This document shows, in pieces, positions 11,347 to 59,126 of a stretch of 64,000 nucleotides of DNA. This DNA is from Phycisphaerales bacterium (GTDB lineage Bacteria; Planctomycetota; Phycisphaerae; Phycisphaerales; UBA1924). The stretch lies in NCBI GenBank assembly GCA_016764895.1, contig JAESRA010000069.1, forward strand, positions 1,045-65,044, given 5' to 3'. Below the pieces are notes generated by a model, which saw nothing but the letters and a program-made list of their open reading frames with translations, searched no databases and was not told where the DNA came from. A program made the position numbers and the translations under genes. The number at the start of each line of letters is the position of its first letter. The first letter of the stretch is position 1.

Positions 11347-11414
11347 CTTGTTGTCACTTTGTCACTTTGTCACTTTGTCACTTTGTCACTTTGTCACTTT
11401 GTCACTTTGTCATT
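11347..11414. repeat. octanucleotide tandem repeat (GTCACTTT)x7 plus partial units
   Basis: Seven perfect head-to-tail GTCACTTT units at 11353-11408 with degenerate flanks. It starts 7 bp after the rho stop, between convergent genes. Confidence 0.95.
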
Positions 11415-42823: not shown

Positions 42824-44143
42824 TCAAGACCCACAGCACCCGCTCTTCGGAGCGGGTTTTTCTTGCGATGAACATCCGCAGGAAGAAGCCCCAGTTGACG
42901 AGCAGCACCCGCCGCCGGACTTGGTGCCGACCTTATGGGCACCGAGCCATTTGCGGGCCTTGATCCCAAGGGCCCACGCCATGAGCATCACAAAAATCAC
43001 GGCCGCGACATCTTTGAAACCAAACCCCGCCATCGAGTGCTCATGCTTGGACGCGGTGTCGGCCAGTCTCACCATATTGATAAAGAACGCATCAAAGATG
43101 ATCCCGGCACCAAGGGCAACACCCGCGATCACGCCGAGATAAATCACCAGCGCCTTGATGCCAAGGTCTTTAATCAACCAACTCATCGTCGCCACATTCG
43201 TCGCCGGACCCGACAACAACAGCACAAGCGCCGCACCCGGAGAGAGCCCCGCAACCACAAGCGAGAACGCCAAAGGCGTCGAACTCGTCGCGCAGATATA
43301 CAGCGGAATCCCCACAAGCAGCATCACCAACTTGGGCCACAAGCCAGAGCCAACATTCTCCTCGATCCATCCATGAGGCACCACCGATCCAATGATCGCC
43401 GCCATCACCAGCCCGATCGTCAGCCACATCGCCAGATCAACAAGCATCACCCCAAACCCATGACGGAACACCTCTTTAGTCGAGCCAGCAAACCCAAGCC
43501 CAGTCTTCTGAGGCGTCGACGAACAGCACGAACCACCCGCAGGCTCTTCCTTAGGTTTGGTCGACGAACAGCACGAACCCGCAGCAGGCTCAGCCTTCGA
43601 CGAGCAACATGACCCCGTCGCCTTCTTGCCGGTCTGAGCAACCACAGCACCAGCATCATCGGCGTTGGTAATCGACAACCCAATAGCGTTCGGATCCTCG
43701 AGAGAATCCGGCTGGGCCTTCGTTCCCGTTTCTGTCTCATTCCGATGCGTCAGATCAATCAACACCCCCGCAAGCAATCCCGTAAACACCGCGATCACAG
43801 GCCGAGCCAACGCAAAAACCGGCCCAAAGAGCCCCCAAGTCAGCGGAATCGACTCTTCGCCCGTCTGAGGCGTAGAGATCGCAAACGCAGCACTCGCCCC
43901 CTTGGTTGCCCCCTGTTCCCGCAGCCCCGCCGCCACCGGGATCACTGCACACGAACACAAAGGCAGCGGAATCCCCAAAAGGGACGCCTTGGCAATTGGG
44001 ATAATCCCCTTGCCGCCAAGGTGTTTCATCATCCACTCCCGAGGCACCACAACATGCATCACCCCAGCGAGTAAAAAGCCAAAGATCAGCCAAACGGACG
44101 ATTCAGTCAGAATCATCCACAGTTCAGTAAAGAAAGCTTCCAT
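42824..44143 (-). CDS. UPF0718/SO_0444-like permease (putative metal efflux) with Cys-rich loop and tail
   Basis: The N-terminus ...LLGIPLPLCSCAVIPVAAGLREQGATKGASAAFAISTPQTGEESI matches the permease family annotated as Cu/Zn efflux (SO_0444-like). The central loop has three GSCCSS repeats. The C-terminus is GGGCCSSTGASSCGCSS...SGCCGS. Confidence 0.75.
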   Translation of the reverse strand: MEAFFTELWMILTESSVWLIFGFLLAGVMHVVVPREWMMKHLGGKGIIPIAKASLLGIPLPLCSCAVIPVAAGLREQGATKGASAAFAISTPQTGEESIPLTWGLFGPVFALARPVIAVFTGLLAGVLIDLTHRNETETGTKAQPDSLEDPNAIGLSITNADDAGAVVAQTGKKATGSCCSSKAEPAAGSCCSSTKPKEEPAGGSCCSSTPQKTGLGFAGSTKEVFRHGFGVMLVDLAMWLTIGLVMAAIIGSVVPHGWIEENVGSGLWPKLVMLLVGIPLYICATSSTPLAFSLVVAGLSPGAALVLLLSGPATNVATMSWLIKDLGIKALVIYLGVIAGVALGAGIIFDAFFINMVRLADTASKHEHSMAGFGFKDVAAVIFVMLMAWALGIKARKWLGAHKVGTKSGGGCCSSTGASSCGCSSQEKPAPKSGCCGS

Positions 44144-44221: not shown

Positions 44222-44265
<44 letters not shown>

Positions 44266-44301
44266 AAGTTTCGTGTATAGTCATTGAAACGGAGATTATT
44301 A

Positions 44302-46512
44302 ATGTTCAAATTCGCAACCATATGCACTGTCCTATACGCCTCATATTCTGCATTGGCAGGACAATCTTCATATCTCGTATTTCCAGTTCCAGACTTACCA
44401 GCCGAATCAGTTTCGAGTTCGTTGACGGCGGTATTTGACGACGGATTATGTGTAGGTGTGTGGTATGATGCCGATGGAAACGATCATTCATTCGCATGGG
44501 CGCCTGAGGCGACCGACGATTATGCCCAGGGGTATACAGATACCGGTATCTGGTGGGCGCGGGAGATCGGAGACAAGAATATTGATGGGCATTGGGCTCG
44601 CCAGAGTTGGATCTGGTCACCATCGTTGCAAGATTCGGTACCGACGCCGGGATACTGGATCCCAGGGAGCCCGCAAACCGCAATCGGCACACTGGGTGGA
44701 GAATCCGGTGCATCGAGGGCGATTTCAGACACCGACACCTTAATCGGATGGTCGCAAACAGCTGACTTTGATCCAGCGGGCAATCCTGTATCTCACGGTT
44801 TCGTATGGACCGAAGCCGGAGGCATGGCTGCCGTCGAGCCGCTTACGGGGTTTGAACATCTTACCCTCAACGACATTCATCCTGATGAGTTGCTCATAGT
44901 CGGTACGATGTGGAATGCTGAGTTACGCGAGCCAGGATGGATTCCACCGCTCGGCGATGAAATCATCGTGGCAGATTCTGAGGGTATTTATCTCGACAAC
45001 GGAAACCCTGTCTCGATCAATGCCTTGCTTGCGCCAGCATGTCAGTGGGAAATCACAGGTGCCAACTCGGTCAACTCCCAGCAATGGATCGGTGGCTCGG
45101 CCCAAGGAAATGACGGGATGCTCCACGCGGTTCTCCTGATTCCTAACAAAGCGGATGTAGATATGGATGGGCAGATCACCATCCAAGACATCACCATCTA
45201 TCTACAAAACTACGGATCAAACGATCCACTCGCGGATACAAACAATGATGGTCTGATTGACCAGGACGATCTGGTGGAGTTTACAAACGACTTTACAACA
45301 GGGACCTCATCGGGGGTTGCAGGTTCTACACCCATTGGTGGTGGCTCAAATGTTGGCAGGCCTGTCCCAGTAAATTGCTTGCGCCGGATGGCCTCAAACT
45401 CAAACTGTGGCAAAGACTGCGACGGGTGGAACAACGACAATCCGGGCCAGTTCAGCCAAGAATGCAATCCGCACTGCTATGGGTGTTCTGGTGATGATGA
45501 GCACAACATCCACGCTCCAAATGGCGCACCGGGTTGGCCTGGGGATGACCCGAAAAATCCCTATGCCCCCAACGGCGGTCCAGGTGGGGCTGGTGCGGAT
45601 GCTGATGAGGGCTCTGGTGAACCGGGTGGCTATGGTGGTGCTGGTGGCAATGGCGATGAGGGAGGGGATGGCGGTGCTGGTGGCGAAGGTGGAAATGGAG
45701 ATGGATACGGCGACGGCGGCCATGGTGGTGCTGGTGGCAATGGTGGGGGTGGCGGTAATGGTGGCAACGGAGGCGGCGGAGGCGAAACAGATTCCGGGAA
45801 CGGCGGAAACGGCGGCAATGCTGGCAATGGTGGGGACGACGGTAATGGTGGCAACGGAGGCGGTGGAGGCGGTTCCAGTTCTGGGGTTGGTGGTACAGGG
45901 GGAAGCGGCGGTGGGGGCGGCTCCTCGGCAACTGGCGGCAATGGGGGCAGTGGTGGCGATGGAGGAAGTGGCGGGGCTTCCGGTTCTGGTACTGGTGGCA
46001 CTGGTGGACCTGCTGGCCCTGGTGGTGGCGGGGGAGGATCTGGCGATGGTGGCCAAGGTGGTGTTGGTGGTGCTGGAGGATCATCAGATAGCGGCACCGG
46101 TGGGACCGGTGGAACAGGTGGGAGCGCGGGCTCAGGTGGATCGAGTGGCGGGAACGGGGGTGTAGGAGGATCTGGTGGTGCTGGGGGTTCGTCCGGCAGC
46201 GGAAACGGCGGACAAGGGGGGGGCGGCGGCTCAGGTACGACCGGAGGCAGTGGAAATGGATCCAATGGTGGTGCAGGGGGCACCGGCGGAGCATCAACAT
46301 CGGGCACAGGCGGGGATGGTGGCAATGGGGGGTCTGGTGGCGGGGCTACTCCCGGAGGTCAAGGCGGGGACGGCGGTCGTGGTGGAGATGGCGGTTCAGG
46401 TGGTGAGGGTCAAGGCGAAGGCGGGGACGGCGGCCGCGGCGGCAACAGAGGCGGTAATGGTGGGAACGGTGGTAATGGCGATCCTGACGGCAACCCCGGC
46501 CAGGATGACTGA
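44302..46512 (+). CDS. secreted HAF-repeat protein with internal classical dockerin-like EF-hand pair and ~310-codon polyglycine (PGRS-like) C-terminal region
   Basis: ATG 44302 follows ACGGAG; signal peptide MFKFATICTVLYASYSALAG. HAF-like repeats (DHSFAW, SHGFVWTEAGGM, LHAVLLIP). EF-hand pair DVDMDGQITIQD...DTNNDGLIDQDD at 45154-45294. From ~45570 to the end the sequence is GG-x-GG-x repeats (GGAGGNGDEGGDGGAGGEGGNG...). Confidence 0.8.
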   Translation: MFKFATICTVLYASYSALAGQSSYLVFPVPDLPAESVSSSLTAVFDDGLCVGVWYDADGNDHSFAWAPEATDDYAQGYTDTGIWWAREIGDKNIDGHWARQSWIWSPSLQDSVPTPGYWIPGSPQTAIGTLGGESGASRAISDTDTLIGWSQTADFDPAGNPVSHGFVWTEAGGMAAVEPLTGFEHLTLNDIHPDELLIVGTMWNAELREPGWIPPLGDEIIVADSEGIYLDNGNPVSINALLAPACQWEITGANSVNSQQWIGGSAQGNDGMLHAVLLIPNKADVDMDGQITIQDITIYLQNYGSNDPLADTNNDGLIDQDDLVEFTNDFTTGTSSGVAGSTPIGGGSNVGRPVPVNCLRRMASNSNCGKDCDGWNNDNPGQFSQECNPHCYGCSGDDEHNIHAPNGAPGWPGDDPKNPYAPNGGPGGAGADADEGSGEPGGYGGAGGNGDEGGDGGAGGEGGNGDGYGDGGHGGAGGNGGGGGNGGNGGGGGETDSGNGGNGGNAGNGGDDGNGGNGGGGGGSSSGVGGTGGSGGGGGSSATGGNGGSGGDGGSGGASGSGTGGTGGPAGPGGGGGGSGDGGQGGVGGAGGSSDSGTGGTGGTGGSAGSGGSSGGNGGVGGSGGAGGSSGSGNGGQGGGGGSGTTGGSGNGSNGGAGGTGGASTSGTGGDGGNGGSGGGATPGGQGGDGGRGGDGGSGGEGQGEGGDGGRGGNRGGNGGNGGNGDPDGNPGQDD

Positions 46513-46537: not shown

Positions 46538-46570
46538 AGAACCGTGTCTTCCCGGCACGGTTCTTTCTTC
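46538..46570 (+). terminator. putative terminator after the Gly-rich gene
   Basis: AGAACCGTG-N9-CACGGTTCT followed by TTCTTCC (a weak T tract). Confidence 0.5.
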
Positions 46571-46607
46571 CTATGATAGAGTCCATCGGAACCATTGGAG
46601 CGGATAT

Positions 46608-47897
46608 ATGCCATACACACTCACACCCGACACCGGAATCGATCCAAACACCGACAAGGTCGATTACCTCAAAGACCATGTCGACACCGGCGACCGCTGG
46701 GTCCTCAACTTCGGCCCCCAGCACCCCGCGACACACACGACCCTCCGCCTAGTCCTGGAACTCGATGGCGAGCGCGTCGCGCGCTGCACGCCCCACATCG
46801 GCTACCTCCACTCTGGCTTCGAGAAACTCGCCGAGCATATGGACTACAACCAGTATGTGACGATTGTTTCAAGGATGAACTACCTCTCCTCAATCTCCAA
46901 CGGCATCTGCTGGCACCACACCGTCGAAAAACTCTTCGACATCCAAATCTCCACCAAGTGCAAAGTCCTCCGCACCATCATGGCCGAACTCGGTCGCATC
47001 CAAGACCACCTCCTCTGCGTCGGTGCAGCAGGCCTCGATGTCGGCGCCATCACCGGCTTCCTCTACGCCTTCAATCCACGCGAACACATCTACGACATCA
47101 TGGACTACGCCTCAGGCCAACGCTTCCACCCAGACTGGTCCCGCGTCGGAGGCATCGTCAAAGAAATCCCAGATGAAGCCGTCTTCGTCCGCATGGTCAA
47201 ACAATTCCTCCACGGCGTACTCGAACAAGCCATCGACGACCTCATGACCCTCGTCGAACGCAACCGCATCTTCATGGATCGCACCCAAGGCATCGGCGTC
47301 ATCACCCACGACGAAGCCATCGCCTACAGCGCAACAGGCCCCATCGCCCGAGGCTCAGGCGTAAGACGAGACCTCCGCAAAGACGAACCCTATCTCTGCT
47401 ACGCTGACAACTGGGACGGCAACGGCGCAAAAGCAGTCGAATTCGATGTCCCCATCGCACAAGACGGCGACGCGTACTGCCGCTTCCTCGTACGCATCGA
47501 AGAAATCAAACAATCCATCCGCATCATCGACCAACTCATCGACCAAATCCCAGAAGGCCCGACCGATGTCTACGCCGATGAAAAAATGACCAAGCCACCC
47601 AAGTCCGATGTCTACGGCTCCATCGAAGGACTCATCCAACACTTCCAGCTCATCATGACCAACCGAGGCTGGGAAGCCCCCATCGGTGAGGTCTACGGTG
47701 CCCACGAAACCGCCAACGGCGAACTCGGCTATTTCATCGTCGCCGACGGTAGTAAATGCTCATGGCGAGCCAAAACCCGCCCGCCAAGCTTCCTCAACTA
47801 CTCGCTCATGTCCAAAATGCTCGAAGGCCACATGCTCGCCGACCTCGTCGCCGTCATGGGCTCCCTCAACATCGTCGCCGGCGAACTCGACCGATGA
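46608..47897 (+). CDS. nuoD: NADH-quinone oxidoreductase subunit D
   Basis: NFGPQHPATHTTLRLVLELDGE, HIGYLHSGFEKL and the C-terminal ...SLNIVAGELDR. No nuoA/B/C upstream in the window. Confidence 0.95.
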   Translation: MPYTLTPDTGIDPNTDKVDYLKDHVDTGDRWVLNFGPQHPATHTTLRLVLELDGERVARCTPHIGYLHSGFEKLAEHMDYNQYVTIVSRMNYLSSISNGICWHHTVEKLFDIQISTKCKVLRTIMAELGRIQDHLLCVGAAGLDVGAITGFLYAFNPREHIYDIMDYASGQRFHPDWSRVGGIVKEIPDEAVFVRMVKQFLHGVLEQAIDDLMTLVERNRIFMDRTQGIGVITHDEAIAYSATGPIARGSGVRRDLRKDEPYLCYADNWDGNGAKAVEFDVPIAQDGDAYCRFLVRIEEIKQSIRIIDQLIDQIPEGPTDVYADEKMTKPPKSDVYGSIEGLIQHFQLIMTNRGWEAPIGEVYGAHETANGELGYFIVADGSKCSWRAKTRPPSFLNYSLMSKMLEGHMLADLVAVMGSLNIVAGELDR

Positions 47898-48955: not shown

Positions 48956-49681
48956 ATGATGATCTTCTTCGATGAGTCCTTCAGGAAACATGAGAGAACT
49001 GATGTCCGGTTTGGCGTGCTTATGGGGGTTGCTATTCCAGAAGATGTATTTGCTCGATTCCAAAGGGATTTTTATCAAATCTGTAAACCGTATTTCGGAA
49101 CCGTTCTGAAGGAAGGGCATGATGTTCACGGTTCTGATTTACTCACAAATGTGACCATGCGGATCCAAGATGAAGGTGGCCATAGTGGGCATTGGAGTCT
49201 TGCGGAAGACATTCTTAATTATTCTGCTCGGGCGGGTATTAAAGTATTTGGAGTGGTTTGTTTCAAGACGGATTTCCAGTCCTTTGTGTGCTCTGATGAG
49301 ACAAATCTCGATCTTACCTTCAAATATTTATTTGAGCGGGTAGATTTGTTTATGAAGAATGAGTTTCCAACCCGGTATGCAAAGCTCGTCTTTGATGACC
49401 GTGGGCGATCAACCAATGAAAAGAATGGCCGAGCTATTACCAGCTTTTTTCTGAAGAGCACTGTTGGATCAAGTTATGATTCGTTAATTAAAACTCCGCT
49501 CTATGGAGTATCAAAGAGTCATAATTATGGTTTACAACTTGCAGACTTGGTAACTACGGTTGCTGGCCGAAAGTTTCAGGGCGACCGTAGGGTTCAGTTG
49601 TTGTGGGAAAAAGTTCACCAGATGCTTTATATTGGGAAGATTGGAAACATGAATCAATCGAGCTTGAAAGTCATGCGGTAG
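48956..49681 (+). CDS. DUF3800-like protein (AT-rich insert in the nuo cluster)
   Basis: AGGAG lies 10 nt upstream. The N-terminal IFFDES and the C-terminal GLQLADLVTTVAG resemble the two conserved DUF3800 blocks (x-DESG ... Q-x-AD). Codon usage is visibly more A/T-rich than in the flanking nuo genes. Confidence 0.5.
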   Translation: MMIFFDESFRKHERTDVRFGVLMGVAIPEDVFARFQRDFYQICKPYFGTVLKEGHDVHGSDLLTNVTMRIQDEGGHSGHWSLAEDILNYSARAGIKVFGVVCFKTDFQSFVCSDETNLDLTFKYLFERVDLFMKNEFPTRYAKLVFDDRGRSTNEKNGRAITSFFLKSTVGSSYDSLIKTPLYGVSKSHNYGLQLADLVTTVAGRKFQGDRRVQLLWEKVHQMLYIGKIGNMNQSSLKVMR

Positions 49682-51979: not shown

Positions 51980-52304
51980 GATCTTTCTCCAGAAGAATAA
52001 GAATCGTCCACAACCCAATACGCATCAATCGAAGCTCTAGATTCCAAAACTGCGTGAGAAAGAGGCATTGCCAAGCGATTTAGAATGTTTCTAAGGCCTC
52101 GTGCATCCACTCCCGAATCTGACGAGCCGCGACCGTAAGGGAGCGGTCTTTCCCGAAAACTCAAGACCACTCCCGAACGATCACGGCTCATTCAGAAAAA
52201 CACCCAATCCAAGCCCTAGAATCGACCACCCCCCAAAGTACCCCCCAAAGTTGCCCCTGTGGCTGTTGCGAGGGGAATGTTTGCTATCAGCTTGGAGCCG
52301 ATCA

Positions 52305-53690
52305 ATGCCGAAAAAAGTATGGGACAACACACTCTCCGAGCACATCCTGCTCAAACGAATCCCCACAGCCCCCTTCGGGCACATCCGCGATCGCCATGTC
52401 GTCGGATACGACGAATACATCAAGACCGGCGGCTACGAAGGACTCCGCAAAGCCCTCACCATGAAACCCGAAGATGTGACGAGCCAGGTCAAAGACGCCG
52501 TCCTCCGCGGACGCGGCGGCGCAGGTTTCCCCTGCGGCCTCAAATGGACCTTCCTCCCAGACCCAGACGGCCAAGAACGCTACCTCGCCATCAACGCAGA
52601 CGAATCAGAACCAGGCACATTCAAAGACCGACTCCTCATGGACTTTGACCCCCACGGCATGCTCGAAGGCATCGCCATCTGCATGTACGCCTGCCGACTC
52701 GACAAAGCCTACATCTTCATCCGAGGCGAATACCACCACCAAGCCAAGGTTCTCGAAACCGCCATCAAAGAAGCCTACGACAACGGCATCTTCGGCAAAA
52801 ACGGCATGATCAACAAATCCTCCGCCTCCGGCGATCCATTCGTCGCCGAGTGCTATGTCCATCGCGGAGCCGGCGCCTACATCTGTGGCGAAGAAACCGC
52901 ACTCCTCGAAGGCATCGAAGGCAAACGAGGCTGGCCAAGAATCAAACCACCATTCCCCGCCATCAAAGGCCTCTTCGGTCGCCCAACAATCATCAACAAT
53001 GTCGAAACCCTCGCACACCTCCCCTACATCCTGACCGACGGCGCCAAAGCATTCTGCGAACTCGGCGTTGAATCCTCCATCGGCGGCCCGCCGTCCTACG
53101 GCACAAAGTTAATGGGCGTCTCAGGACATGTCGAAAAACCCGGCTGCTACGAACTCGAACTCGGCGTCCCCCTCCGCACACTCATCGAAGACTACTGCGG
53201 CGGCATCAAAGGCGGCAAAAAATACAAAGCCGCCATCCCCGGCGGCGTCTCCATGGGCATCCTCGGAACCGACCAATACGAAGCATGCCTCGACTTCGAC
53301 ATCGGCAAACAACACGGCGTCCTCGGTCTAGGCACCTCAGGCCCAACAGTCTTCGACGAAGACACCGACATGGTTTCGGTCTGTCGAAACATCACCCGAT
53401 TCTTCAAACACGAATCCTGCGGCCAATGCACTCCCTGCCGCGAAGGCTCCGGCTGGCTCTACCAAATCATGACCCGAATCGAAGCCGGCGACGCCAAATC
53501 CAAAGACCTCGACCTCGCCCTAGAAATCGCCAACTCCATGGGCTCCATGCCTGGCACCACCATCTGTGGTTTAGCCGACGGCAACGCTTGGGCGACCCGA
53601 ACCATCATGGAAAAATTCCCCGAAGAGTTCCAAAACCGAGTCCAACGAACCTTCATCCCCGTCACGCTCGACATGTCCACACTGGGCTAA
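52305..53690 (+). CDS. nuoF: NADH-quinone oxidoreductase subunit F
   Basis: ATG 52305 follows GGAG. GRGGAGFPCGLKW (FMN), NADESEPGTFKDR and ESCGQCTPCREG (4Fe-4S). Confidence 0.95.
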   Translation: MPKKVWDNTLSEHILLKRIPTAPFGHIRDRHVVGYDEYIKTGGYEGLRKALTMKPEDVTSQVKDAVLRGRGGAGFPCGLKWTFLPDPDGQERYLAINADESEPGTFKDRLLMDFDPHGMLEGIAICMYACRLDKAYIFIRGEYHHQAKVLETAIKEAYDNGIFGKNGMINKSSASGDPFVAECYVHRGAGAYICGEETALLEGIEGKRGWPRIKPPFPAIKGLFGRPTIINNVETLAHLPYILTDGAKAFCELGVESSIGGPPSYGTKLMGVSGHVEKPGCYELELGVPLRTLIEDYCGGIKGGKKYKAAIPGGVSMGILGTDQYEACLDFDIGKQHGVLGLGTSGPTVFDEDTDMVSVCRNITRFFKHESCGQCTPCREGSGWLYQIMTRIEAGDAKSKDLDLALEIANSMGSMPGTTICGLADGNAWATRTIMEKFPEEFQNRVQRTFIPVTLDMSTLG

Positions 53691-54334: not shown

Positions 54335-54420
54335 GGATTGCACTGAATTGCTAAGTTTTCAAGACACTGCTGCGCATAAGAATGCGAGCAGTGGCACCCA
54401 CAAATCCAATCTTCCTCTCT

Positions 54421-54447
54421 GTGTTCTCTGTGTTCTCTGTGTTCTCT
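54421..54447. repeat. 9-bp tandem repeat GTGTTCTCT x3
   Basis: Three perfect adjacent units in the DoxX-downstream spacer. Confidence 0.9.
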
Positions 54448-54590
54448 GTGGTCAAGTCTTCTCTTATCTTTTCTTCCCCCAATGGCAAGTGGCTAATCCC
54501 TAATCCCTTCTTCAAAAATCAAGCAGCGAGCGTTCCCGCTCGCTGCCCGCCTGAAGGAATCAGGATGGTGTGGTTTGTTAGGCCGATGAT

Positions 54591-58700: not shown

Positions 58701-59126
58701 ATGACCACAACATCCACCATCATCGCCCAAATTGCCAAAGACCTCGTCGCCCACTGCAACACCGAGCATGAGGACATCATCGCTCACGACTGCGCCCTCT
58801 GGGACAAGCACTTCGCTCCAGACTTCATCAGCATCGAAGGCGACGGCAAGACCTACCAGGGCCGCGACGCCATGATCGCCAAATACAAAGAATGGCAAGC
58901 CTCCACCAAAATGCACTCCTGCAAAGTCACAGGCCCATTCCTAGGCCAAGACTCCTTCAGCGTCATCTTCGAAATCGACATGGAATCAAACACCGGCCAG
59001 TTCCCCCGCATGACCATGCAAGAAGTCGCCATCTACACCGTCACCAACGGCAAAATCACCAAAGAAGAGTTCTGCTACCCATGCCAAGACTGCCAAGACT
59101 GCCAAGACTGTCAAGACTGCGAGTAA
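58701..59126 (+). CDS. NTF2/SnoaL-like small protein with C-terminal (CQD)4 tail
   Basis: AAGGGA SD-like motif. About 125 aa with an NTF2-like pattern (low-confidence family call), ending YPCQDCQDCQDCQDCE. Confidence 0.5.
   Translation: MTTTSTIIAQIAKDLVAHCNTEHEDIIAHDCALWDKHFAPDFISIEGDGKTYQGRDAMIAKYKEWQASTKMHSCKVTGPFLGQDSFSVIFEIDMESNTGQFPRMTMQEVAIYTVTNGKITKEEFCYPCQDCQDCQDCQDCE
59082..59117 (+). repeat. in-frame 9-bp tandem repeat TG(C/T)CAAGAC x4
   Basis: Units at 59082, 59091, 59100 and 59109 encode the C-Q-D repeats at the 3' end of the CDS. Confidence 0.95.

Follow-up and report, generated by a model that had tools for sequence, protein, structure and literature searches.

To our knowledge, large natural polyglycine-II (PGII) bundles are confined to a handful of systems (springtail antifreeze proteins, the N-domain of Obg, a phage tail-fibre tip, ALK/LTK and the predicted PGRS domains), and, as far as we know, the predicted PGRS domains have been regarded as exclusive to mycobacteria. 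GGX is the signature motif of glycine-rich polyproline-II (PPII)/polyglycine-II bundles, and a model of PGRS33 comprises 27 PPII helices arranged as a bilayer (PMC13243192; PMC9436101; doi 10.1101/2023.11.25.568672). In simulations, PGRS-type GGX sequences keep stable PPII bundles and scrambled versions do not (PMC13243192). A second described system is the hypothetical 'planctosome' of freshwater Phycisphaerae, built around cohesin/dockerin-tethered peptidases (PMC6461901). Here we analysed a stretch of 64,000 nucleotides from a Phycisphaerales bacterium (contig JAESRA010000069.1, positions 1,045 to 65,044; hereafter the window, whose numbering is used throughout unless another locus is named) and centred on one gene at 44302..46512 (+ strand), whose product ends in a GGX tract of about 310 residues.

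The focal gene is genuine and intact. A single open reading frame (ORF) on the + strand runs from 44284 (TTG) or 44302 (ATG) to 46512, encoding 736 amino acids (aa) from the ATG, and its product is identical (100%) to the 736-aa NCBI entry 'hypothetical protein JKY43_03515, Phycisphaerales bacterium'. It is an unstudied, probably secreted protein of Phycisphaerae, annotated merely as hypothetical. A sequence-only reading of this DNA had proposed the order signal peptide, HAF-like repeats, EF-hand pair, Cys-rich linker and Gly tract, and this domain order held throughout our analysis. With moderate confidence, we interpret the product as a Phycisphaerae-specific, Sec-exported surface or extracellular protein that combines a HAF-type propeller, a dockerin, a connector acting as a cap and a tail predicted to form a PGII bundle.

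The tract itself (aa 432-736; 45595..46509, +; predicted PGII helix bundle) displays a pronounced regularity. Over aa 426-735 (~310 residues), Gly accounts for 58% of positions, N, S, D, A and T being the other main residues, and the lag-3 autocorrelation of Gly reaches 0.41, compared with 0.00 ± 0.054 in shuffles, bearing out the Gly tract of the sequence-only reading. Glycine is arranged in approximately 17 in-register GGX runs (median 10 residues) separated by loops (median 6 residues), and the same organization recurs in 17 family members, where runs of 8-13 residues (median 10-11) alternate with gaps of 5-8. Hydrophobic residues are scarce (5 of 312, or 1.6%; 0.4-7.7% in the 17 family members), the net charge is acidic, the loops consist of S/T/D/N/G, and the outward X residues are N/S/D/T and variable. 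Gly density additionally peaks in autocorrelation at 16-19 residues with a harmonic at 34-37, and loops of the form [AS]S.SG[TN] recur at aa 559, 594, 630 and 664, the pattern to be expected of an antiparallel hairpin array whose two loop edges differ.

Selection acts on the protein sequence of the tract. All four Gly codons occur (GGC 63, GGT 62, GGA 29, GGG 26), and across 126 aligned Gly/Gly columns between the focal gene and an ortholog the same codon occurs in 28.6%, against 28.5% expected from codon usage, indicating that synonymous sites are saturated while the protein has been held. In the nearly gapless alignment of aa 562-735, the register of Gly versus non-Gly is kept in 161 of 173 columns, and non-Gly residues are identical in 26 of 70 columns versus 8.5 ± 2.7 in shuffles (z = 6.6), a statistic that the alignment of low-complexity sequence inflates somewhat. 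Tract length varies from 195 to 334 aa across the family, and the focal copy carries a lineage-specific expansion of 65 aa (aa 497-561; 45790..45984, +), visible as gaps in the alignment with its two closest homologs. At the DNA level, the third-position guanine-plus-cytosine (GC) content, GC3, is 0.43 and TRF detects weak 9/18/45-nt periodicity (66-91% matches). The sequence-only reading had called the region open in all six frames, which did not survive counting: between 45570 and 46512, stops number 12, 1 (the gene's own) and 1 in the three + frames and 6, 3 and 1 in the three - frames.

Structure prediction was based on an AlphaFold2 (AF2) model computed from a 25-sequence family alignment, with a mean predicted local distance difference test (pLDDT) score of 70.9; a model from three sequences (pLDDT 32 overall, ~30 throughout the tract) was discarded. 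Within the tract, pLDDT is ~80-90 for most of aa 430-496 (one block at 63) and 64-80 for aa 560-680, and AF2 assigns neither alpha nor beta structure. When the tail was searched against the PDB with Foldseek, it matched the springtail antifreeze protein 7jjv, a structure of nine PPII helices (E 5e-3 and 1e-2, template-modelling score 0.41, 24-34% identity); the search against viral models returned beta-propeller-type matches only, with no gp38-like PGII sandwich. The alternating GGX runs and loops also fit the helix-plus-loop units of known PPII bundles (9-12-residue runs, short loops). Taken with the conservation of non-Gly positions at saturated synonymous sites, these results suggest that the tract most likely folds as a flat PGII helix bundle, as in springtail antifreeze proteins and mycobacterial PGRS domains. 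Its GGX runs would then pack into an antiparallel bundle or sandwich of ~17 polyglycine-II (PPII) helices, forming a rigid and flat platform, very hydrophilic and acidic, with loops that differ from species to species; this platform may serve as a structural, display or self-association domain rather than as a sorting signal.

The main rival to a folded tail is a disordered low-complexity spacer, an entropic bristle or gel-forming segment kept for its composition alone behind a folded propeller and dockerin. The Gly content and the scarcity of hydrophobic residues would suit such a spacer, as would the spread in tract length together with the private insertion, the pLDDT of ~30 obtained with three sequences and of <50 still seen in parts with 25, and the lack of any Pfam or PDB sequence match for the tract. 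Composition alone, however, does not account for the position-specific conservation of non-Gly residues (z = 6.6), the held Gly register and the nearly gapless alignments, nor for a helix-plus-loop period of ~17 residues shared across the family. The pLDDT of 80-90 beside the highly conserved cap, the Foldseek match to the PPII bundle 7jjv and the stability of PGRS-type, though not scrambled, GGX bundles in simulation (PMC13243192) likewise favour a fold, and we consider a disordered spacer unlikely.

Other repetitive folds were also weighed for the tract, which no Pfam or NCBIfam model covers and which has no Pfam match when searched in isolation. A collagen-like triple helix would share the placement of Gly at each third residue, and several family members end in GxP triplets; yet the longest unbroken Gly-x-y run is 33 residues (15-45 in the family), the register breaks about every 17 residues, and Pfam Collagen gives no match at E<=10. 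An RTX-type Ca2+ beta-roll is brought to mind by the GGXGXD/NXUX Ca-binding motifs once proposed for PGRS (PMC5054227), and the relaxed motif GGxGx[DN] occurs 14 times, but the complete RTX nonapeptide GGxGx[DN]x[hydrophobic]x, which includes a hydrophobic position, has 0 matches in the tract. Either fold is very improbable, and a PGII bundle remains our preferred reading of the tail.

Comparison with the two closest PGII systems sharpens what is shared and what is not. Mycobacterial PE_PGRS proteins likewise contain hundreds of GGX/GGN-type residues in helix-length runs split by loops, are acidic, surface-exposed and fast-evolving, and are predicted by AlphaFold to form packed polyglycine-II helices (PMC9436101; PMC13243192). 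The description 'PE_PGRS-like' in the sequence-only reading is thus apt for composition and probable fold and wrong for membership, the focal protein having neither a PE domain (Pfam) nor a GRPLI motif nor a hydrophobic loop edge. PE_PGRS proteins pair their PE domain and GRPLI linker with ESX-type export, whereas the focal protein, from a planctomycete host, has a putative Sec signal peptide; their loop edge is rich in Phe/Trp/Tyr (PMC9436101), whereas the focal tract is 1.6% hydrophobic; PGRS domains lack the conserved CxGC/PGWPG cap that precedes the focal tract; and the focal DNA is not a GC-rich repeat (GC3 0.43, longest exact repeat 24 nt). These features bear directly on whether the tract could be a PGRS-like 'sail', in which one edge of the bundle would anchor the protein in the outer membrane, an arrangement suggested for PE_PGRS. 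The similar GGX composition and net acidic charge are compatible with a sail, PGRS sandwiches also having negative faces (PMC9436101), and so is the location of the tract, at the position that an anchoring or sorting domain normally occupies in HAF proteins, relatives ending in dockerin_GC or PEP-CTERM-like tails. The PGRS model nevertheless requires a straight edge of Phe/Trp-rich loops (PMC9436101), which S/T/D/N/G loops with 5 of 312 hydrophobic residues do not provide; PE domain and GRPLI motif are both missing; and the module stands N-terminally in two other loci (L011 and L013, described below). We regard membrane anchoring of this kind as improbable.

Springtail (snow-flea) antifreeze proteins (7jjv) represent the only solved fold matched by the tail. 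They resemble the predicted form of the tail in having hydrophilic GGX helices of ~10 residues in antiparallel layers and disulfide or Pro-rich ends; they differ in being small and stand-alone, 7jjv comprising nine helices in ~125 residues as opposed to ~17 predicted helices fused to a propeller and a dockerin, and HMMER detects no sequence homology between them and the focal tail. Architecturally, the tail converges on springtail antifreeze proteins and PGRS domains, to which it is not homologous in context. This resemblance raises the idea that the bundle is an ice-binding (antifreeze or ice-adhesion) surface, or another crystal- or polysaccharide-binding surface, displayed on the cell via the dockerin; besides the sole solved-structure match, one family locus comes from a metagenome-assembled genome (MAG) labelled ACE_PLA1, which we take to be from an Antarctic lake. 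Springtail ice-binding faces are flat and Ala-rich, whereas the outward X residues here are N/S/D/T and variable, and the names of family members point to varied lakes and marine samples, not specifically to cold sites. Even though antifreeze proteins are the best-known GGX PPII bundles (PMC13243192), we accord an ice-binding role little probability, and a structural or display platform remains the preferred interpretation of the bundle.

The segment preceding the tract is the most conserved of the family. This Cys/Pro-rich connector (aa 358-431; 45373..45594, +) follows the pattern NCL..C..C..W..NPG.[YF]..CNPxCYGCxG...P.GAPGWPG.DP.NPYAPNGGPGG in the focal protein, with Cys at 359, 369, 373, 388, 392 and 395, as expected for the Cys-rich linker noted from the sequence alone. 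At the family level, its best-conserved part reads W..NPG.[YF]...NPxC[YF]GCxG..P.NP..P.GxPG[WF]PG..P.NPYxPxGGPGG. AF2 models it at pLDDT 73-90 from about aa 370 onward and at <50 over aa 340-369, and the connector would cap the tail and probably nucleate its folding. No Pfam or NCBIfam model covers the connector and it has no PDB sequence match; searches of PDB sequences with connector and tract retrieved nothing save a chance match to NDUFA8 at E 2.8. A word-index protein search with the connector profile gave 0 matches, low complexity appearing to defeat the index.

The connector and tract also occur together in other architectures. In two loci, L011 (5908-7518) and L013 (5905-7425), a signal peptide is followed directly by a CYGC connector and a GGX tract, then by an unknown domain of ~200 aa and a C-terminal Dockerin_1 domain (24.8 bits in L013, which exceeds the cut-off, and 18.9 bits in L011, which does not). 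In a third, L014 (4062-5324), a connector without the CxGC motif and a tract lie behind an unrelated 170-aa domain. Occurrence in these different contexts identifies the connector plus tract as an unnamed autonomous module, and its N-terminal placement in L011 and L013 marks it as a position-independent domain, not a C-terminal sorting signal. The module co-occurs with dockerins. A bolder and rather unlikely extension is that connector and tract constitute a new class of autonomous extracellular domain in Phycisphaerae, a CxGC/PGWPG-capped PGII sandwich of ~12-20 helices that evolved independently of both mycobacterial PGRS domains and arthropod antifreeze proteins. It would have been shuffled among dockerin-bearing secreted proteins, to lie behind a HAF propeller, ahead of a Dockerin_1 module or behind other domains, and would provide a dockerin-based assembly on the cell surface with its scaffold or its partner-binding face. 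If such an autonomous capped sandwich were real, PGRS-type folds would be a general bacterial surface solution and not a mycobacterial oddity. In either case, the NPxCxGC...PGWPG...GGPGG cap offers an annotation handle for proteins now listed as 'hypothetical'.

At the N terminus, aa 21-283 (44362..45150, +) form a probable divergent HAF-repeat domain, proposed from TIGR02913, the family profile, AF2 and Foldseek. TIGR02913 (curated cut-off 22.65 bits) describes tandem repeats of ~39 residues; on its own, the N-domain reaches 22.3 bits (E 1e-4) in 2 stretches, two homologs score 20.4 and 13.2 bits, and the full-length focal protein has no match to this NCBIfam model. The family profile nevertheless picks up, in multiple stretches, authentic HAF proteins with TIGR02913 scores of 150-578 bits (E 1e-45 to 1e-178). 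We call the domain divergent HAF on account of this sub-threshold score together with the profile link to genuine HAF proteins, and the HAF-like repeats of the sequence-only reading are in this sense upheld. AF2 models the head as all-beta, most of it at pLDDT ~80-94 and two 10-residue blocks at 59, and Foldseek against the PDB returns beta-propellers, among them acylaminoacyl-peptidase, fucose lectins, PON1 and sialidases, with E values of 1e-3 to 1e-2. The N-domain is accordingly modelled as a beta-propeller, and probably acts as a ligand-binding head.

The focal N-domain and HAF-repeat extracellular proteins are homologous at the profile level, and both are secreted, in the focal case by prediction. 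They differ in that the curated hidden Markov model (HMM) recognizes just 1-2 repeats in the focal domain, and in that HAF proteins are typically PEP-CTERM-sorted, whereas the focal protein ends in ...GNGGNGDPDGNPGQDD without a PEP-CTERM tail, which would consist of a PEP motif, a transmembrane helix and a basic end, and has no NCBIfam match to PEP-CTERM. Two HAF relatives (P0037 and P0058) combine HAF with a C-terminal GC-type dockerin. A literature search returned nothing on 'GC-type dockerin' and nothing relevant on 'HAF repeat'.

Between head and connector lies a dockerin-like module (aa 284-335; 45151..45306, +) comprising two EF-hand Ca loops, each followed by a helix. The loops DVDMDGQITIQD (aa 285-296) and DTNNDGLIDQDD (aa 312-323) both match the 12-residue consensus D-x-[DN]-x-[DN]-G-x-[ILV]-[DNST]-x-x-[DE], in agreement with the EF-hand pair that had been placed at 45154-45294, and AF2 predicts the helices of the dockerin fold at aa 294-305 and 321-333. 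From these loops, the module probably binds Ca2+. The NCBIfam model for GC-type dockerins, NF041540, scores 34.8 bits over aa 284-334 (cut-off 29), covering profile positions 3-66 of 67. The sequence-only reading had instead assumed a classical dockerin, an assignment that Dockerin_1 (PF00404) does not sustain: the full-length protein has no match, and the isolated domain reaches 17.1 bits against a gathering cut-off of 22.9 (26.0 bits in the family member P0029). The isolated domain also scores 27.6 bits on the Pfam EF-hand_1 model (cut-off 25.4).

The window contains further dockerins of this family. About 11 kb upstream, a dockerin island of ten consecutive genes (12330-32976; eight on the + strand, two on the -) encodes proteins that each end in a GC-type dockerin following the pattern C.PD.NGDG.LDFFDISAFL.AF....P.AD..GDG..DFFDISAFL.AF..GCP, immediately before the stop. 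Their N-terminal parts include a MauG-like di-haem peroxidase, a glucose/sorbosone dehydrogenase (GSDH), three S8 subtilases, a multihaem-cytochrome-like protein and unknown domains, and in the island the DNA motif TTYTTYGAYATHWSNGCNTTY occurs 20 times versus 0.08 expected. The island dockerins score 36.7-49.2 bits on NF041540, and all ten are C-terminal and bracketed by Cys...Gly-Cys; the island type has no significant Pfam match, the best being DUF6742 at E 0.095. Because it passes NF041540, can be aligned gap-free with an island dockerin (35% identity) and shares with the island, as with GC-type dockerin proteins generally, two canonical Ca loops spaced 27 residues apart, we assign the focal module to the same family. 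It differs from GC-type dockerins in lying nearer to the generic EF-hand and Dockerin_1 profiles than the island type does, in its helices (ITIQDITIYL and LIDQDDLVEF, versus LDFFDISAFL in the island), in its internal position (400 further residues follow) and, with no Cys between aa 247 and 359, in lacking the Cys...Gly-Cys clasp. By sequence, the focal dockerin is a divergent, internal, clasp-less subtype of the family found in the island and no classical cellulosomal dockerin. What had been suggested as a second dockerin type in the same window is therefore a subtype within that one family.

Functionally, the GC-type dockerin probably plugs the protein, in a Ca2+-dependent manner, into the same putative cohesin-like receptor system as the ten island exoenzymes. 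The planctosome offers the nearest described parallel, from the same bacterial class and with dockerin-tagged exoenzymes, here including three subtilases, adjoining the focal locus; it differs in relying on canonical cohesin/dockerin Pfam domains and in having no Gly-rich module (PMC6461901). Two further proteins, P0012 (2148 aa) and P0013 (609 aa), consist mostly of tandem GC-type-dockerin-like modules, with 6-7 or more NF041540 stretches, and might be multi-dockerin adaptors; P0012 is also similar to the XopAW family of Ca-binding effectors.

Several of these results weigh against the composite reading of an exported propeller, dockerin, cap and PGII tail. For the tail, the alignment of 25 sequences behind the AF2 model is shallow, pLDDT falls below 50 at the insertion (aa 497-561), the last ~50 residues are likewise of low confidence, the match to 7jjv is weak, and the inflation of the identity statistic has been mentioned. 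For the head, the TIGR02913 score lies just under its cut-off. For the docking module, Pfam detects no cohesin-like partner in the 20 larger window ORFs scanned, and since it is internal and without the Cys clasp of the GC type, the focal dockerin may be a plain Ca-stabilised structural element. The components (HAF, dockerin and GGX tract) are each of known kinds, and the finding is moderately rather than highly surprising, its function being one that we infer from them. What appears to be new, by the models, is a HAF/dockerin exoprotein that additionally carries a capped polyglycine-II bundle domain, unnamed so far. As a family of conserved, probably secreted planctomycetal proteins with a predicted ~17-helix tail and a recognisable cap, these proteins would provide an independent, non-pathogen model of how such folds nucleate, why bacteria display them and how they combine with Ca-dependent docking modules.

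To define the family, we searched a profile of aa 1-440, built from three sequences, against 1.84 billion cluster representatives. This yielded 6919 matches at E<=1e-3 and only 19 proteins at E<=1e-30, so the combination of domains is indeed as unusual as the sequence-only reading had supposed. About 20 representatives of 50%-identity clusters (500-790 aa) show the propeller, the dockerin pair, the connector and a tail exceeding 50% Gly over 100 residues; the weaker multi-stretch matches, thousands in number, are genuine HAF-repeat proteins. In two homologs from independent assemblies, P0002 (50% identity) and P0003 (37%), all modules are kept in the same frame and order, and both share with the focal protein the C-terminal motif GEGQGxGGDGGxGGNRxGxGGxGGxG. 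Homologous Gly tracts in related genomes, a search that the sequence-only reading had recommended, were thus found in these two proteins and in the ~20 cluster representatives. When an alignment of eight connector sequences was searched against 185,579 GTDB species genomes, 12 loci were recovered, all in MAGs of Phycisphaerae/Planctomycetota and about half of them in the full architecture. The protein is consequently no 'chimeric' one-off fusion, as had been assumed: its whole architecture is conserved lineage-wide.

Gene order points to long-standing residence. The L001 ortholog has the same two neighbours as the focal gene, an ArsP-type permease on one side and NuoD on the other (NuoD 84% and the permease 58% identical); a third genome (L003) keeps the order ArsP/gene/NuoD with NuoD at 73%. 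With ~50% identity over the same evolutionary distance at which NuoD retains 84%, the focal gene is a fast-evolving resident gene, and the synteny in two further genomes together with the lineage-wide layout argues against both an artefact and recent horizontal acquisition. The latter had been suggested by a 5' part described as visibly more AT-rich than its neighbours, a difference that proves marginal (aa 26-425: GC 0.536 versus 0.52-0.60 in neighbouring genes, GC3 0.54 versus 0.55-0.75); a weakly expressed, fast-evolving gene could show such a GC3. The clearest compositional outlier is a DUF3800 gene (48956-49681; GC 0.42, GC3 0.43; window mean ~0.55 GC), which makes a stronger case for horizontal acquisition than the focal gene does.

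The same data address whether the architecture could be an assembly or annotation artefact, such as a mis-joined or frameshifted repeat or a chimeric contig, a concern that the sequence-only reading had itself raised for the Gly tract. The source is a short-read MAG, the private 65-aa insertion is modelled at low confidence, and an in-frame TAA interrupts the ortholog in L003. The reading frame nevertheless continues to the same C-terminal motif in two independent assemblies, the longest exact DNA repeat inside the tract is just 24 nt, so that short-read assembly is unambiguous there, the Gly codons are mixed and the synonymous sites diverged, and synteny holds on both flanks. We find an artefact hardly credible, and the intact, lineage-wide protein stands. 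The TAA in the L003 ortholog (Planctomycetota MAG J019) is located at 1507-1509, between dockerin and connector, where the close homolog P0006 has Tyr, and marks either a pseudogene or a sequencing error. Selenocysteine was ruled out for this ortholog, the stop being TAA at a Tyr position and not TGA at a Cys position.

The coding sequence (44302..46512, +; 736 aa plus stop) is supported by the ORF list and by its identity to the database protein. We preferred ATG 44302 over TTG 44284 because a GGAG Shine-Dalgarno-like motif, read from the sequence, lies 7 nt upstream of it (44291..44294, +) and NCBI uses the same start. The predicted signal peptide spans aa 1-19 (44302..44358, +), a hydrophobic N terminus ending in AxA with predicted cleavage between ALA and GQ; the segment MFKFATICTVLYASYSALA, followed by GQ, resembles a Sec signal, in line with the sequence-only reading, and family members have equivalent A-x-A-Q ends, suggesting that the protein is exported by Sec. 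Downstream, an intrinsic-terminator-like hairpin with an 11-bp stem and a T-rich tail begins 26 nt past the stop (46538..46574, +), and the gene accordingly appears to be monocistronic, apart from nuoD (46608-47897).

Some additional features of the surroundings were recorded. A (CT)19.5 microsatellite at 44227-44265, 37 nt 5' of the focal ATG, is not present upstream of the L001 and L007 orthologs; it could be a slippage-prone expression switch for the focal surface protein or a neutral simple-sequence repeat. Three near-perfect short tandem repeats, TTGTCACT (x7.8, 100% match; 11351-11412), TCTCTGTGT (x3.9, 100% match; 54416-54450) and TGCCAAGAC (x4.3, 93% match; 59082-59120), apparently lie between ORFs of at least 200 aa. 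The adjoining ArsP-type permease (42824-44143, - strand) has three GSCCSS repeats in its central loop and a Cys-rich C terminus (CCSSTGASSCGCSS...CCGS), which suggests soft-metal binding, and Cys-rich segments are also found in the L001 ortholog. Finally, the nuoD-like gene (46608-47897) and a nuoF-like gene (52101-53690) are solitary, with unrelated genes between them and no contiguous nuo operon, and the same scattered arrangement is seen in L001.

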